64,000 nt of DNA from Escherichia phage CMSTMSU. Shown here piece by piece: positions 2,613 through 63,574 of the stretch (the stretch's first letter is position 1; the number at the start of each line of letters is the position of its first letter). A program made the translations under genes and the position numbers. The notes below the pieces were generated by a model that worked only from the letters and a program-made list of their open reading frames with translations, searched no databases and was not told the origin of the DNA. The stretch is from the sequence record MH494197.1; one strand, 5' to 3'.

Positions 2613-4789
2613 TTAACTGTTTCTCTCACCTTGGGTGTTTTCAGAGATAGTTCTTAGATAATTATTTGTCTGTTGTACAGCAGATAGTGATTGTTCATTA
2701 ACATCGGCAAGCTTTTTGAGTATTTCTTTCATTTCATCAGAAATCGGTGCTGGTGGTCCAGTTCTCGATGTCACTGCACTACCATTATTTATCATCTTCT
2801 TAATTGCCTCTGTATCGTCAGGTTTTGGTGGAACTGGTGGTTCACGGTGCCCATGCAGTTTTATCAAAATCTTTACGAGATACAGTTATTTCTGGAGCAA
2901 CGTTATTGGTTTTCAATAACAGGACGAATACGTTCTACTCGGACGGTTGAATAAACTGTCAGCATAATCAGATGGTAGTGGTTTTGGTTCTTTGTAGTTA
3001 CGTGAGGTGTTCCATTTGTTGAACTTATCCCACATCCCTGCAAAATAATCACTAACACTATTTACACCGTTGTCAATGATGTTGTTTACGCTTTCTGCTG
3101 GGGTTTCAGTACTGTTATTGAGTTTTATATCATTATCAGAACCACCACCGAACCAACTTTTAACAGAATTCCATAGGTTACCGGTAAATCCATTAAGTTA
3201 TTCATAAAGGTATCAAATGCTTCTGACACTTTAGAGTAACCTGAACCGAATATATCTGCACCCAATCCATCCAACCAAGCTGTAAATTCAGCACCAATAC
3301 GATCAAGGTAAGCAATTGCATCTTTAGCAATAGGTACTAACCCAAATCCATCAAGAGCCAATTCCCCAATAAACTCCCATGCACCATCAGTTCTGTCTGC
3401 AATGTCTGAAAGATAATCCACAATTGAATTTTGTGTATTAGCATACATTGTATTAAATGGTTCAGTGAATTCTTTACTAATCCACATATTGAAGCGGTTA
3501 GTAAATTGAGTTAATTTATCAGCGGGATTATTTTTAGGTTCATTTACGGTTGCTTCCATATCCAATAGTTGTTGGTAGAAGGTTGCAGCAGTTGTGTTTC
3601 CTAATTGAATCTGGTTAAGCAAATCTTGCTTAATTAATTCTTTATTCTTTTAACGAATTCTAATTGTTGGCGACGAATTTCTTGTGAATCAGTTACACCA
3701 CTACGTACAAGATTTTCACCTAAATCAGCGAACTGGTTCAGTACTGGAGTGAGTAGGTCATCCGGTACACCACCAATAGACAATCTGTGTGATATCAAAC
3801 GGAGGAAATCTGCACCTGCATCACCCATTGCACCCGCAGCTTCGTTGAACGCCTTAGATGTTGCTACAGCAGCTTTACTGGATAGTCCAGAGTAGTTCTG
3901 CAATGCAATTTGCATAGAACGCGTATCGAGTGATTTATCTAGGTTTTGTGTTTTGTTTAGTAATGCATCAACGGATTCACCCATGCTTTTACTGAATTTA
4001 GTCATGCTCATGATGAATTGTTCAGTACTTTTAGCTTGTCCATACTACGAAGAGCTTCACGACCACCATATTGTTTTGGAACTTAATGTTTCTTGCAGTT
4101 AAATCAGTTAATGTTTTTGAGAAATACCATAAAGGCCAAGTTCATTTTGAGCTTGTTGAACAGTTCCTAATAATTTACCAAAGGTAGCAACACCATCACC
4201 ATATGCCCCATCCAACTGAGCTACTACAGAACTATGTGTTTGTAGAGCTTCACTGAATCATCCATACTCAACATAGATGCACCTGCACCTTTCAGTACTG
4301 AACCATAACCTTCAGCCAATGCAACACCAGCACTGTTAATTCTGGTATATACTTCCAATTGTGCATTAAGTGCGTTATATACAGCAAGACCAGCACCAGT
4401 AACGAGTTTAAATGCTGCTGCCGCTGCACCAATTGGACGGCATCATTGCTAATGAACCAGCAAATGATGATGCACTAACGCCTAATGAGTTTACTACAGT
4501 ACTTACGTTCGTACTGGAGTTCATCATTGTTTTGCTTACATTGGAAACTTCAGAAGATAGTGATTTGAACAATTTACCAAATGCTTTCCCATCATCGGCT
4601 TGTGCACTTCCACGATTACTGGAAGAACTGGAACTGGAACCATTCTTTTTACCATTTGAACCTGATTTTTCTTATCATTCTTTATATTTTCAGCTAATAA
4701 CTCACGGATAGCAGTCAAACTATCATTGTTATCTTTAGTTTGATTAACCAACTGCTGTAGTAGGTAATCACTTGTATTGACAGCCATAA
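2613..4789 (-). CDS. Large Ser/Ala/Gly/Asn-rich virion protein (about 725 codons), heavily frame-broken; function unknown (internal or tape-measure/hub-like is speculation)
   Basis: Fragments 4536..4853, 3634..4011, 3125..3622, 2613..2867 plus sub-60-aa pieces read as one protein when frames are switched; AAAAGGGA SD before ATG at 4789; TAAATA core on minus strand at 4820..4825. Confidence 0.45.
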
Positions 4790-23571: not shown

Positions 23572-26150
23572 GATGATATTATCGAACTAGTTGTTGATGG
23601 TGTGGAAATAAAAGAATACACCAAAACTGTAGTTAATAATCAAGTACAAAGTATTACAATTGATAGCTCTGTTGATTTGGATGAAGATTCTGTTGTACAA
23701 ATCAGAACTTATAGTAGCACTATCACTCCTAATAAAGAGTTGGGTGCATATGAAGTTCCAATTAACCTACAAAATAACCCATATAATTCAAACATTGAAT
23801 ACATCAACCAAGGTGATTACACCTGCACTTCCAAGATATTATTCAAAAGAATATTACATCTGGTTCTGCTGATGACTTTAACAATTACGAAGAACGTTTG
23901 GCTGCTGGTTTGGTTAATAATGGTGTAGGTACTAAAATTATTCAAAACGAAGCGTCTATGCTACCACTAATGGCACATACCGCTAATGAAGATATTGATT
24001 TGTTTGAATCAATCATGTTTATGCAAGCAGAATACTTCCGCTTCATCAACAAGTTCAACACTCAAATGCTTCGTTTGTATGAAGAAGACCCAAGTGCATT
24101 TCTTGGTAATAGTGCATCAAACATCGTAGATGCGATTCTAACAGCTATTAATATGGGACGTGATAGTACATTCCCATTCTACTATGACAACGTTGCAAGC
24201 ACTGCTGGGTTTATTCGTGCATTTGTCCCACCAACTCCACAGTTCTTGGGTATTTTGCAAGCTTATACGCCACAAAAAGCAACATTCTTAACTGCTGGTA
24301 GTAAATCTAGCTGGTATAATATCAGTCATACTGGTATTATTTCAAAAGCATACCGTGTTATCAATGGTGTTGATAAAATGGATGACGTTGTTTTCGAATT
24401 GGAGAATCGTATCTTTAATAGTATTGACCTTACTTTCAAGGATATTGATTATAAACCAGTACTAAACAGTGAAGACCTATTCCCAACTCCATATTTCACT
24501 GGTACTGATTATAGTGCAGAAGAAAAGAAAACTCTATTGCTACGTGGTTACATTAACTTCACAGCAACCAATGGTATTAGTAACAGTACTCATGATTATG
24601 ATGCAAATAACTGGAGAACTTGGAACTATACTGGTAGTTATTATGTTGTTGATGGTCAGCGTACTGAAATTCCTGCTCGTGGTTCATGGCGTGCAATCTA
24701 TACTGATCAATACGGAACATATCGTCCAGCAACCCACCCGTGGGAAATGATGGGCTTCTCTCAACGTCCTACTTGGTGGAACCAAGAATACGAACCAACC
24801 GCAGTTCAAGTTGGTGAACGTGAGGGTGATGTTGTTTATGTGTATGAAGCACTAGTAATGAATGAAAGTGGTGATTTGGTCCCAAGTGGATTGTGGGATA
24901 TTGATGGTACTATCGGTGACAGCAGCACTGGCACTATTTTGTCCGGTGAACGCCGTGGTCAATATGACAAATACAAGCGTTTCGGTGTACAGCCATTTAA
25001 AATCACTAAGACTGGCGAGAAAACCAGTACTGGTATTGATATTTGTGAAGTTGAGTATATTGCACCTGAAGTTTTAGGTCTTGTTAGTGGTAATTTGGAT
25101 CATCGTGCAGAACCGTGGGCTTATGGTGACATGGGTGACATGGAATTCACTTACATGAACACTGCGATGTTTGCTTATGACCAAATGCTTCTTCTATACA
25201 AAGCAAAACCAGCACAGTTTGCAAACTATTACTGGGATACCCGTAATGATAACCTTAAACCAGTTTATACTGATGGTTCACAGTTCCTTTATGGTGAAAC
25301 TCGTAAGCGTCTAAACTTTGACAGTACTACATTAGTACATGGTGAGAAAAACACCCGTACTATCGGTTATCAAATGTTTGTTAGTGACTATTTGATGTAT
25401 CAGAACAAGAACATTACCACCAAATACGGTGACGTTGTTCGTTCTTCTTATGTTAATGTTGCTCACAAAATTGGTGGCTTTACTAAAGCAGACCAATTGA
25501 CATTCACTGCTAAATCTTTCGGTTTGATTTCACAAGAAAACCAAACTATCGGTCTAGTTCGTTCCAATAACATTCGCGATGAGCAAATGAGTGCAGTAAA
25601 AATTACTTGGAATGGTAGTGCATATCAAATTGATGGTTATGATTTAGTTGGTGCTAAATTTAAATATAAAATTCCAGTTAAAAATGGAAGAAAAGTAACT
25701 CTTAAATTGGAAGACAGAACTGTTGTTCATTACAATGAATGGAAATCTGAAGGTACATTAGAATATGGTAAAATATTCAATACATACCAAGAAGTTTATA
25801 CTTTCATTTGTGGATATGGTGAATATCTAAAAGAACATGGCTGGATTTTTGAAGATGTAAATGATAGTGGTGCTCAACAAGACTGGACAACTATTGCTAA
25901 AGACTTTGTTATTTGGAGTCAGAATAATTTAAGTACTGGTGAGTTCATCTCCTGTACTCCAAGTGCAGCTAATGCTAAATTTGGTGCAGATTTTGGTTCA
26001 GTTCAATCTGTTACACAGAACAGTGGTGGTGTTTGGTCATTACTTGATGATGAAAACCAAGGTATCCGTCAATATGAAATCGAAACGTCGCGTATCGGTA
26101 ACGTATTCACAGTGAGAACTACATCCGAATCACAAAACGTATGGCGTTGA
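23572..26150 (+). CDS. Baseplate/fiber structural protein segment (boundaries uncertain)
   Basis: ORF 23898..26150 (750 aa) continuous with upstream 23602..23928 by frame switch; reading continues from previous segment. Confidence 0.4.
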
Positions 26151-31908: not shown

Positions 31909-31935
31909 AAAAGGAGAGCATTTGCTCTCCTTTTC
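31909..31935. terminator. Bidirectional rho-independent terminator
   Basis: AAAAGGAGAGCA-TTT-GCTCTCCTTTTC hairpin between convergent genes. Confidence 0.65.
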
Positions 31936-31938
31936 TTT

Positions 31939-34216
31939 TTACGCAATAACTTTTTCTATTGCTTTAGTTCGTTTAGGTTTGATAGCCAATTTACCATCAA
32001 TCACATCAAACGTTACGTTACCACCATTAACCAGAGAACCACACAACATCTCTTTAGCTAGTGGAACACGGATGTTTTGCTCAATAGTGCGTTTCATTGG
32101 ACGTGCACCCATCCCAACTTTAACACCATTTGTTGCCAACCACTCACGTGCCGCTTTAGTCAGGAAACTTTAACTTTGCGGTCTTTGATTTGTTCATTCA
32201 GACTACCCATGAACTTATCAATGATGCTGTCAATCGCTTCGCTGCTTAGGTCTTTGAATGTCACAATACTATCGATACGGTTGATGAATTCAGGTGGCAA
32301 GAATGCTTTAATCGCTTTATCTTGTGCTGTATCACTACCGCTCATCCCAATACTACGCTTGGTTGAATCTGCTGCACCAAGGTTAGTTGTCATAATAACA
32401 GTTACGTTATTGAAGTAAACAGTTTTACCTTGTGAACCAGTCAAACGTCCTTCGTCCAGAACCTGTAGGAAGGTTAGTAGTACTTTACGATCAGCTTTTT
32501 CGATTTCATCAAGCAACAGTACTGCATTCGGGAACTGCTCAATCTTGTCGAGTAGCAGACCGTTACCGGAATCGTGACCAACATAGCCGGAGGTGAACCA
32601 ATCAGTTTAGCAACAGTATGTTCCTGTGAAAACTCGGACATATCGAAACGAATCAGTTCAGAGCCAGTTGCATCAGCCAGTGCTTTGGTAATTTCAGTTT
32701 TACCAGTACCAGATGGCCCAACAAACATGAATGCACCTTGAACACTTGATTTATCACGCAGACCAGCACGAGCTACCATCACGTTATCAACCAGTTTCTG
32801 TACTGCTTCTTCTTGACCGTATACACGAGAACGTAGTGCATCTGGTAGATTACGCATACGTTCACTTTCAGTGCAAGCAACCACGTTAATATCTAGGTTT
32901 GCGATACCTGCAACAACTTCTTGAATCAGTGCAACAGTGATGATGTTATCATCAGTTTCACGAGAACGTACTTTCGCTGCTGCCGCATCCATTAGGTCGA
33001 TTGCTTTGTCAGGGAAGTGTTTGTTCTTCAGGAACTTATCACTTAGTGTAATAACTGCATCCATTGCTTCAGTACTGAACTCTACGTTATGGAAAGTTTC
33101 ATAAGTAGATTTCAAACCATTCACAATCGCACGGGTTTCATCAATTGTTGGCTCAACTACATCAATTTTCATGAAACGGCGAGTTAGTGCACTATCTTTT
33201 CGATGTTTTACGATATTCATCGTAAGTTGTTGCACCGATTACACGAATCTCACCACGAGATAGTGCAGGTTTGAGCATGTTACTCATATCCATAGAACCG
33301 TTGCTTGCTGAACCAGCACCAACCATAATATGGATTTCATCGATGAACACAATAGTGTTTTCACGTTTCTTCAGTTCTTTGAGTAGGTTATCGATACGTT
33401 CTTCGAACTCACCACGGTACTTAGTACCAGCAGTCAGTGCACCTACGTTCAGAGACAGAATTTCAACATCTTTAAGATGCTCTGGTACTTCACCATCAGC
33501 GATTGCCTGTGCTAGACCATCAATGATTTGAGTTTTACCAACACCAGCTTCACCAGTCAGGATGGCATTCTTCTTAGTCTTACGGGCCAGAGTTTCAATC
33601 AGTGCAGAAAGCTCTTTCTGGCGACCAATCATTGGTCAAGTTTACCTTCTTTGCAAGTGCGGTTAGGTTAGTGGTGTAATCTTCTAAACCTTTTGTTTGG
33701 ACGATGGTTGTTGTTGTGCCACTTTTTCTCCCCAGTTGGCTCATCACTAATGCTTTGAAGGTTGATTCCGTTGTCGATTGCTTCTACGTGCTTCTGTAAA
33801 GTTCGTGCTGCTTCAGTACAAGTGATACCCTCTTCACGCAATGCTGCTTCTAGTGCAGTATTTGGGAATGACAAACACTCAAACAGTACAAAATAAGCAT
33901 CAATTGAGAAATCATCACGTTTAAGTTGCTCAATTACTGATTTCTTAGAAAGTTCCTGAACTACACGGTTCACAAGAAGTGATGTGCGGTTCGCTTCATC
34001 ACCATCAGCACTTTTAGGTGCATGTGGAATGTTGTATTTTTCAGATATGCAATCAAACGACCGTGTAGGTTGTCTGCATCGATGTTCATATCTTCAAATA
34101 CTGCTTTGATGCTATCGATTGTCAGTACTGTAGCACTTAGATGGTCAATAGTCAAGAAGGTATGACCCAGAGAAGTTGCCAGTTCGTCGCTTTTTGAATA
34201 ATTGGGTAAGATTCAT
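31939..34216 (-). CDS. ClpA-like two-ring AAA+ unfoldase (Clp N-domain, D1, D2, C-terminal domain), frame-broken
   Basis: N-domain [12 protein letters not shown]; D1 Walker [25 protein letters not shown], Walker B IVFIDEIH; D2 Walker [19 protein letters not shown], Walker B MLDEIEKA; C-terminal [11 protein letters not shown]; about 758 codons as in E. coli ClpA; AGGAGA SD before ATG 34216. Confidence 0.85.
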
Positions 34217-34254
34217 GTATTCTCCTAAATGAGTAGTCACTCTAATTAATAAAC

Positions 34255-34282
34255 ATTATATCACATTCTTTGCGTTTGTCAA
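34255..34282 (-). promoter_or_regulatory. Strong sigma70-type promoter (TTGACA-16 nt-TATAAT with TGn extended -10), minus strand, upstream of ClpA-like gene
   Basis: Minus-strand TTGACAAACGCAAAGAATGTGATATAAT. Confidence 0.6.
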
Positions 34283-34325
34283 CAAGGTAAATAAAGATAT
34301 ACCCGATTTATTTTGGAGACAAACA

Positions 34326-63455: not shown

Positions 63456-63483
63456 ATTATATCACATCGTTCAGGCTTGTCAA
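63456..63483 (-). promoter_or_regulatory. Strong sigma70-type promoter (TTGACA-16 nt-TATAAT, TGn extended -10), minus strand
   Basis: Minus-strand TTGACAAGCCTGAACGATGTGATATAAT. Confidence 0.6.
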
Positions 63484-63546: not shown

Positions 63547-63574
63547 ATTATAACACATCATTCGGCGTTGTCAA
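63547..63574 (-). promoter_or_regulatory. Second tandem sigma70-type promoter (TTGACA-16 nt-TATAAT), minus strand
   Basis: Minus-strand TTGACAACGCCGAATGATGTGTTATAAT; about 90 bp direct repeat of 63456..63483 unit. Confidence 0.6.

Follow-up and report, generated by a model that had tools for sequence, protein, structure and literature searches.

A frameshifted clpA-like gene of Escherichia phage CMSTMSU and a probable phage-encoded ClpAP(S) protease in Rak2-like jumbo phages

A 64,000-nucleotide (nt) stretch of the genome of Escherichia phage CMSTMSU (sequence record MH494197.1), hereafter called the window, carries on its minus strand a gene for a ClpA-like AAA+ unfoldase. Comparison with related genomes suggests that the phage encodes a ClpAP(S) protease, made up of this hexameric unfoldase, a phage ClpP and a ClpS-fold adaptor, with clpA under a conserved host-type promoter. 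We assign this reading a probability of about 0.6. The clpA frame is broken ten times in the window, and we are nearly certain that the gene encodes a functional ClpA-family ATPase whose frameshifts are artefactual.

In megablast searches, the Clp segment showed 98.3-99.1% identity to phages Turkey3, WPEC5, EC.P1, fEgEco12 and others, and 84% identity to 121Q, PBECO4 and phAPEC6 of the genus Asteriusvirus. The window is collinear with positions 202,916 to 138,646 of Turkey3 on the reverse strand. By these similarities, the source is a Rak2/121Q-like (Asteriusvirus-like) jumbo myovirus and not a T4 phage. An earlier reading made from the letters of the window (the sequence-only reading) had taken T4 as its frame of reference and owed its sense of novelty to that comparison. 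This frame did not hold; in Rak2-like genomes, clpA is conserved and already annotated.

The sequence-only reading also described a gene of about 758 codons. No such open reading frame (ORF) exists in the window: the ten artefactual frameshifts had been read through, there is no uninterrupted ATG-to-stop frame, and the longest minus-strand ORF is 253 amino acids (aa) long. The gene lies in about seven ORF pieces (61, 101, 50, 146, 253, 118 and 66 aa) distributed over the three minus frames, and the repaired protein mapped to window frames -1, -3, -3, -2 and -1 in a tblastn search. The start codon ATG is at 34214-34216 and the stop codon TAA at 31939-31941 (minus strand). Ten deletion events removed 11 nt in total from the frame. 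All nine close relatives compared (9/9) have 2817 nt where the window has 2801 nt, with the 2289-nt coding sequence (CDS) intact in each, and none of the frameshift sites is present in these nine 99%-identical genomes. The CDS and its deletions, the latter all artefactual and given without strand, are as follows.

31939-34216, minus strand: clpA-like CDS, 2278 nt in the window, 2289 nt (762 codons) with 11 bases restored
32163-32165: 1-nt deletion, GGG to GG, causing a frameshift
32587-32590: 1-nt deletion inside a CCWGG site (CCTGG to CCGG), which destroys the GYVG pore-loop codons
33197-33210: two 1-nt deletions in adjacent T5 runs
33634-33653: two 1-nt deletions, in a GGG run and a T4 run
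33691-33728: two 1-nt deletions, in a T5 run and a T6 run
34026-34028: 1-nt deletion, GGG to GG
34191-34196: loss of 2 nt from a T7 run, which shifts the frame 8 codons into clpA

The ten frameshifts in clpA are long-read-type assembly errors, which occur at the same rate throughout the window. Against the 99%-identical Turkey3 genome, the window showed 251 insertions or deletions (indels), or about 4 per kilobase (kb), 230 of them deletions in the window. Homopolymers of at least three nt accounted for 154 of the indels and CCWGG sites for 38. The chance that a Turkey3 homopolymer was shortened in the window rose from 0.2% for length 1 through 0.4% (length 2), 1.1% (3) and 4.9% (4) to 45.5% (5), 88% (6) and 89% (7), and 33 of the 40 CCWGG sites carried a deletion (e.g. 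26307, 27454, 32589, 34628, 34710 and 38661). Further examples of indels across the window are those at 26134, 27775, 30018, 31712, 34343, 35330 and 37117. Most long genes of the window are frameshifted at this density, so that an ORF-based reading is unreliable and correction is needed first. Deletions at homopolymers and CCWGG sites are the error profile of uncorrected nanopore-type assemblies of Dcm-methylated DNA. We infer that the window is an uncorrected assembly of long-read type, possibly from nanopore-type reads. The CCWGG pattern suggests that the sequenced DNA carried 5-methylcytosine at Dcm sites. Turkey3 encodes a predicted C5 cytosine methyltransferase (TIGR00675, 118.6 bits), and the host Dcm would be an equally good source of Dcm methylation.

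Ten frameshifting deletions in a single gene, leaving no ORF longer than 253 aa, could also mark a genuine pseudogene, in which the frameshifts are real and the isolate has lost clpA function. We regard this as very improbable and rejected it, as the rate and context of the indels equal those of the flanks and the substitutions are those of a constrained gene. From the deletion rates outside clpA and the homopolymer content of clpA, 9.2 deletions were expected and 10 were observed, and those in clpA are confined to homopolymers and CCWGG sites. The flanking genes, which encode a giant virion protein of 3323 aa, a 498-aa structural protein and a gp15-like protein, are essential and are equally fragmented in the window. 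Nonsense substitutions are absent from clpA, and repair yields a frame of 762 codons free of internal stops, whose product departs from Turkey3 XMR01227.1 at two residues (D335A and I757V). Programmed frameshifting was rejected as well, since all ten sites are error-prone homopolymers or CCWGG sites that are absent from the nine 99%-identical genomes. A viable phage cannot have all of its long structural genes frameshifted, which argues against pseudogenisation and programmed frameshifting alike.

The protein was analysed through its intact ortholog, whose sequence shares 99.7% identity with the repaired protein of the window. The homology to the Clp/Hsp100 family on the minus strand that the sequence-only reading had proposed was borne out. 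The top NCBIfam model was that of ClpA (TIGR02639, 751 bits, aligned over residues 3-741), and the best match among solved structures was E. coli ClpA (E = 7e-178), aligned in a single contiguous stretch (17-741 against 20-734). Pfam searches found AAA (D1), AAA_lid_9, AAA_2 (D2) and ClpB_D2-small, and the match to PHROG 4871 ("ATP-dependent protease") was full-length (1018 bits; residues 2-756 aligned to positions 11-761 of the 764 in the profile). ClpB, ClpC and Hsp104 aligned in two separate stretches that skip the M-domain (HMMER E-values of about 1e-150), because the phage protein has no M-domain. We rejected a ClpB/Hsp104-like disaggregase, as the coiled-coil M-domain insertion in D1 is absent. 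These results show that the protein has the ClpA architecture, with N-domain, D1, D2 and D2-small and no M-domain. The modules were placed in the window as follows.

33770-34216, minus strand: diverged Clp N-domain, aa 1 to about 150, with two four-helix repeats (from Pfam, sequence identity, AlphaFold2 and TIGR02639)
32906-33687, minus strand: D1 AAA+ module, aa about 179-440, with Walker A GEAGVGKT at 33531-33554, KYRG, Walker B FIDEIH and RR fingers
32005-32905, minus strand: D2 AAA+ module and D2-small, aa about 441-741, with Walker A GPSGTGKT at 32696-32719, GYVG, TTN and GARP

The two AAA+ rings with their Walker A and B motifs, as well as the ClpA-type C-terminal signature, were thus recovered as the sequence-only reading had described them, the latter in the form of the D2-small domain and the GARP sensor-2 motif. 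The Walker B motif of D2 is LLLDEIEKA, and the other conserved ClpA motifs are TKYRG, PPGYVG, RRF, NRID, TTN and GARPM. The Walker A and B motifs of D1 and D2 showed no variation in an alignment of 26 homologs (22 from the phage clade and 4 cellular), and neither did the pore loops (KYR and GYVG), the arginine fingers (RR and NR), TTN or GARP (26/26). The GYVG codons are scrambled in the raw window by the deletion at 32589. Once repaired, the protein has all of the predicted motifs for ATP binding and hydrolysis intact, as well as the arginine fingers, the sensors and the pore loops that would grip the substrate. For the Clp N-domain that was claimed from the sequence, the predicted fold stood, with the expected 8 helices in two repeats (aa 3-148) in the AlphaFold model at a predicted local distance difference test score (pLDDT) of 52-89, and with TIGR02639 aligning from residue 3. 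Its sequence signal was weak, as Pfam Clp_N scored 21.1 bits against a cut-off of 20.7 and covered the first repeat only (aa 11-59). The whole model had a pLDDT of 78.9, with low-confidence, flexible loops in the linker, the pore loops and residues 624-630. A Foldseek search with this model returned ClpA, ClpC and ClpB chains at template modeling (TM) scores of 0.7-0.8.

Among known systems, the protein is closest to E. coli ClpA (PDB 1ksf/1r6b, 6w1z and 7uiv), the unfoldase of ClpAP with ClpS. The two share the domain order, the absence of an M-domain and similar lengths (758 aa in E. coli, 762 aa in the phage), and the Walker A/B motifs, KYR and GYVG loops, RR and NR fingers, TTN and GARP are identical. 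The phage protein also has a hydrophobic-Gly-hydrophobic tripeptide at the position of the E. coli IGL, and in the relative Turkey3 the genome that encodes ClpA also encodes a ClpP and a ClpS-fold partner. It differs from E. coli ClpA in its overall identity of 43.7% (N-domain 22.6%, D1 51.5%, D2 46.0%), in scores below the equivalog cut-offs and in a tripeptide, IGM, that varies within the clade. The phage gene is virus-encoded and has a consensus sigma70 promoter, unlike that of E. coli. ClpB/Hsp104 and ClpC/ClpE are likewise class-I double-ring Hsp100 proteins with similar D1 and D2 cores, but they carry an M-domain in D1, an insertion that the phage protein lacks.

A clpP partner of phage or host origin had been named by the sequence-only reading as something to look for, and close relatives do encode a ClpP together with a ClpS-fold adaptor, both outside the window. 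The Turkey3 ClpP (231 aa, at 82.6 kb) scored 142.9 bits against Pfam CLP_protease and is about 37% identical to E. coli ClpP. Its catalytic triad is intact, with Ser, His and Asp at the positions of S97, H122 and D171 in the E. coli enzyme, and did not vary among 21 homologs. In RefSeq and in the records of several submitters, the ClpP ortholog is called "head maturation protease" (the label of PHROG 94). A separate T4 gp21-like "prohead core protein protease" lies between the portal and major capsid genes, and the former label is therefore probably a transfer error. Further Turkey3 annotations of the "Clp protease" kind were set aside. XMR01118.1 is a marginal match to the ClpP superfamily (21 bits) with no PDB match and with the catalytic Ser and Asp unaligned, XMR01120.1 showed at most a faint HslV-like match, and XMR01418.1 showed none. 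None of them is used as evidence.

The ClpS-like protein of Turkey3 (XMR01312.1, 181 aa, at 253 kb), annotated as a Clp adaptor, gave a weak Pfam ClpS score (17 bits) as a single sequence. A profile of 19 family members matched E. coli ClpS over the whole core (E = 6e-5; hhalign probability 89%). Its AlphaFold model has a pLDDT of 82 (88-95 in the core), and the core superimposed on ClpS structures with TM scores of 0.83-0.90 and root-mean-square deviations of 1.3-1.8 Å; the top 35 PDB matches were all ClpS. The Turkey3 protein retains the DD motif and a counterpart of ClpS Glu79. The protein differs from E. coli ClpS in its length, in an Asn at the position of His66, and in an extra N-terminal domain (aa 1-64), confidently predicted with three strands and two helices, which replaces the short flexible extension and has no counterpart in bacterial ClpS. 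The adaptor diverges much faster across the clade than the other two proteins, with 35% identity to its GAP32 counterpart against 61% for ClpA and 70% for ClpP. Among GenBank phages, the number of records was 70 for ClpA (at least 60% identity), 69 for ClpP and 71 for the ClpS-like protein, each of them from the same Rak2-like clade of phages infecting Escherichia, Klebsiella, Salmonella, Erwinia, Yersinia, Serratia, Cronobacter, Pectobacterium and Xanthomonas.

The regulatory elements around clpA were located as follows.

34277-34282, minus strand: -35 hexamer TTGACA (TTGACA in Turkey3 and RaK2, TAGACA in 121Q)
34255-34263, minus strand: extended -10 element TGATATAAT, with TG at 34263-34262 and TATAAT at 34260-34255, after a 16-nt spacer
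34221-34226, minus strand: Shine-Dalgarno sequence AGGAGA, 4 nt 5' of the ATG, a purine-rich motif retained in relatives
31909-31934, no strand assigned: bidirectional intrinsic terminator with a stem of 11 bp, a loop of 4 nt and T-runs on either strand

The TTGACA-16-TATAAT promoter reported by the sequence-only reading is present at 34282-34255, matches the consensus at 12 of 12 positions and has an additional upstream TG. Perfect sigma70 sites are rare, with 3 found in the 64 kb against 0.13 expected. The TGnTATAAT element is invariant in the window, Turkey3, 121Q, RaK2 and GAP32, with TTGACA or TAGACA as the -35 hexamer. The bidirectional terminator was likewise found, in the form of the 11-bp hairpin, with predicted free energies of -18.5 and -16.5 kcal/mol and z-scores of about -5.9 on each strand. 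It separates the convergent stop codons of clpA and the giant virion-protein gene, and its hairpin is retained in 121Q, RaK2 and GAP32, with compensatory changes in GAP32. The clpA gene is a conserved single-gene transcription unit inserted in the opposite direction between virion genes. Such a host-type promoter suggests transcription by the unmodified host RNA polymerase, which would be independent of the flanking late genes and probably early. The host RNA polymerase is needed throughout infection by the related phage PA5oct (PMC7318152).

The sigma70 promoters with a perfect consensus in Turkey3 number 31 and are found mainly in the early regions of small ORFs (0-20 kb and 280-320 kb). Four of the 31 lie in the structural region (130-210 kb), upstream of a gene for a MoxR-like AAA+ protein (two promoters), clpA and a DUF4379 gene, so that three of these four consensus host-type promoters drive AAA+ chaperone-type genes. 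The two upstream of the MoxR-like AAA+ ATPase gene (Turkey3 139368-140696) correspond to tandem perfect TTGACA-N16-TATAAT promoters at 63456-63483 and 63547-63574 of the window (minus strand), which share the ATGTG[A/T]TATAAT extended -10 of clpA.

The position between structural genes was as the sequence-only reading had placed it, with virion genes on both sides. The gene for the giant virion protein is followed by clpA, in the opposite direction, and then by those for the 498-aa virion protein, the gp15-like protein and a NUDIX protein, an order that is identical in 121Q, RaK2 and GAP32. In the nine close relatives clpA is flanked by the 3323-aa virion protein on one side and by the 498-aa virion protein and the gp15-like tail-sheath stabilizer on the other. 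This conserved site is among the points that favour the main rival explanation, in which the phage ClpA is a ClpP-independent unfoldase or remodelling chaperone for phage proteins in morphogenesis, and the phage ClpP serves another role. E. coli ClpA alone can remodel RepA, and the phage protein may help to fold, disassemble or translocate, for example, the neighbouring 3323-aa virion protein. From Asteriusvirus to RaK2 and GAP32, clpA strictly keeps its place between the gene for this protein and the structural and gp15-like genes. Translocase or virion-assembly roles were suggested by Iyer et al. (PMC7824862), and clpA adjoins a DnaJ-like chaperone gene in PA5oct and Atu_ph07 (PMC6102473). 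However, the genomes of the clade are collinear overall, so that synteny alone shows no functional link, and clpA is transcribed opposite to both structural neighbours from its own host-type promoter. ClpA is not flagged as detected by mass spectrometry in PA5oct virions, whereas its neighbours are, and it is absent from the list of the CBB virion proteome (PMC5259590). The co-inheritance of ClpP and the ClpS-fold adaptor across the clade also speaks against a ClpP-independent role. We consider this explanation unlikely, although some evidence at the docking tripeptide, described below, is in its favour.

The equivalent of the ClpP-docking IGL of E. coli ClpA was identified by aligning KRSIGM of the phage protein with RKSIGL.

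32343-32351, minus strand: codons I626-G627-M628, equivalent of the ClpP-docking IGL of E. coli ClpA

The loop around it (residues 624-630) is of low confidence in the AlphaFold2 model and is thus probably flexible. The tripeptide is not conserved among the 22 phage members sampled: 13 have a hydrophobic residue, Gly and M, L or F, three have V at the third position, three have IGA and one has IGG, and two have no Gly (MNM and MSM). The variants seen are IGM, LGL, LGM, IGF, MGM, VGM, IGV, IGA, IGG, MNM and MSM, and the cellular ClpAs in the alignment retain [IM]GF. Coupling to ClpP is thus plausible without being secured by the motif. The relaxed tripeptide, including IGG, MNM and MSM, would suit a chaperone that works without ClpP. 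The window's own IGM is a conservative variant of the E. coli IGL in a similar KRSIG context, which would suit another explanation, namely that the phage ClpA competes with the host ClpA and ClpX for host ClpP and so redirects host proteolysis, the phage ClpP being independent of it. The 46% identity of D2 to that of E. coli ClpA is consistent with such hijacking, as is the host-type promoter, which points to expression at a time of abundant host ClpP. Against it, a phage ClpP with an intact triad is co-inherited in every clade member examined, and the tripeptide varies among phages whose hosts all have a canonical ClpP. We find the hijacking of host ClpP quite improbable.

The reading that we prefer is a phage-encoded ClpAP(S) protease. 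The ClpA hexamer would thread its substrates, host or phage proteins, through the KYR and GYVG pore loops into the chamber of ClpP. The likeliest peptidase partner would be the phage's own co-inherited ClpP, with its intact catalytic triad, and the phage ClpS-fold adaptor may dock on the diverged ClpA N-domain, in which case the phage would bring its own ClpAP(S) protease. Coupling of ClpA to a ClpP of some kind is probable, and the chance that the partner is the phage ClpP and not that of the host falls a little short of even.

Several observations weigh against this reading. There is no ClpP or ClpS within the 64-kb window; the two partners were verified in relatives, namely in Turkey3, which is 99% identical to the window. 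The clpA, clpP and clpS-like genes are about 85 kb apart from one another and form no operon. Besides the variable docking tripeptide, positions of E. coli ClpP that we take to form the pocket for the IGF loop have diverged in the phage ClpP (K44 and G114 are clade-specific), a point that serves as a lead only. The phage ClpA scored under both NCBIfam equivalog cut-offs (TIGR02639, 751 against 993; NF008263, 648 against 1350), which argues against strict functional equivalence with bacterial ClpA and not against membership of the family. In CBB virions, ClpP was seen with one peptide (PMC5259590), and it may thus have a head-related role instead. In the literature searched, data on the expression, interactions or activity of a phage ortholog were not found; searches for expression, proteomic or biochemical work on phage ClpA or ClpP gave only remarks on genome annotation.

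A stronger version, which we hold to be doubtful, is that Rak2-like phages have a self-contained ClpA-ClpP-ClpS protease insulated from that of the host. The diverged N-domain would pair with the extra-domain ClpS-fold adaptor, and the variable tripeptide with a phage-specific ClpP pocket. If this were so, the phage could target chosen host proteins early without cross-talk with host ClpAP and ClpXP; examples of such targets would be defence or stress proteins, or N-degron substrates that the phage creates itself.

In principle, the gene might also stem from contaminating host DNA or from a chimeric join in the assembly, or the phage might have captured host clpA recently, and the GC content of the segment, 42% against about 35% in its flanks, might be taken to indicate this. 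The probability of such an origin is negligible. Thirty-five phage records have this gene between the same neighbours, with synteny extending to RaK2 and GAP32, and a megablast search of the Clp segment against 5,426 complete E. coli genomes gave no match; the check for contamination or a chimera thus found neither. The identity of 43.7% to E. coli ClpA also speaks against recent capture. In the protein database, the matches down to 53% identity formed one coherent phage clade, on contigs of about 350 kb, and were followed by a jump to cellular ClpAs at 40-42%. The higher GC content is due to GC-rich first codon positions (0.565). GC at third codon positions (GC3) is phage-like (0.322), and the major capsid protein and MoxR genes are equally GC-rich. 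A recent horizontal capture read from the rise in GC was rejected on these grounds and on the identity of about 40-44% to cellular ClpAs, and the host-derived acquisition raised by the sequence-only reading is not supported as a recent event. To judge from these comparisons, clpA is an old resident of the phage lineage and not a recent host capture. Relative to Turkey3, clpA has 6 synonymous and 2 nonsynonymous differences, and relative to 121Q the ratio of nonsynonymous to synonymous substitution rates (dN/dS) is 0.04 at a dS of about 1.08. These substitution patterns show the gene to be under strong purifying selection.

The ClpA-like proteins of Rak2-like phages are products of the same gene (PHROG 4871), including 121Q gp581, RaK2 ORF069, GAP32_229, Turkey3 XMR01227.1 and those of PBECO4 and phAPEC6. 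The repaired window protein is 99.7% identical to that of Turkey3, 92.5% to 121Q, 75% to RaK2 and 61% to GAP32. Synteny, promoter and terminator are shared with these orthologs, and the clpA product of the window is set apart only by the artefactual frameshifts and two amino-acid substitutions. PA5oct gp298 and Atu_ph07 gp292 are also phage-encoded ATPases of ClpA architecture, and their genomes carry ClpP and ClpS-type genes (PMC6102473). They are about 41% identical to the window ClpA, no closer than cellular ClpA. The DnaJ-like gene is directly upstream of clpA in PA5oct and, by report, in Atu_ph07; it does not occur there in the Asteriusvirus/RaK2/GAP32 group.

The gene itself is already known. 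It has been annotated in the GenBank records of 121Q (gp581, "ClpA-like"), RaK2, GAP32 and dozens of relatives since 2012-2014, it has its own PHROG, and two papers have remarked on its conservation in jumbo phages. Attai et al. (2018) described ClpA as highly conserved in most Rak2-like phages (PMC6102473), and Iyer et al. (2021) listed ClpA, ClpX, ClpP and ClpS among jumbo-phage functions (PMC7824862). An experimental characterisation of phage clpA was not found in the literature searched. Together, the ClpA, the ClpP with intact triad and the ClpS-fold adaptor make up a trio found throughout the clade, in about 70 genomes each, which apparently nobody has characterised. With such a trio one could test in concrete terms how giant phages reshape the proteolysis of an infected cell.

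Some further features stood out elsewhere in the window and in Turkey3. A segment of about 730 bp (3535-4265) gave no megablast alignment to Turkey3 199362-198622, with flanks about 98% identical; it is a variable segment of the gene for a 734-aa hypothetical protein (XMR01242.1) adjoining the portal gene. Between about 44750 and 54260, several stretches of 0.2-1.2 kb matched secondary Turkey3 positions (148-158 kb) at 72-84% identity, a sign that the very large hypothetical proteins XMR01216 and XMR01217 contain internal repeats or paralogous segments. Beyond the window, Turkey3 carries at 337-357 kb an array of about 17 paralogues annotated as "E3 ubiquitin-protein ligase HERC1", "regulator of chromosome condensation" or "NS1A-binding protein", which are probably RCC1 or kelch-type beta-propeller repeat proteins.

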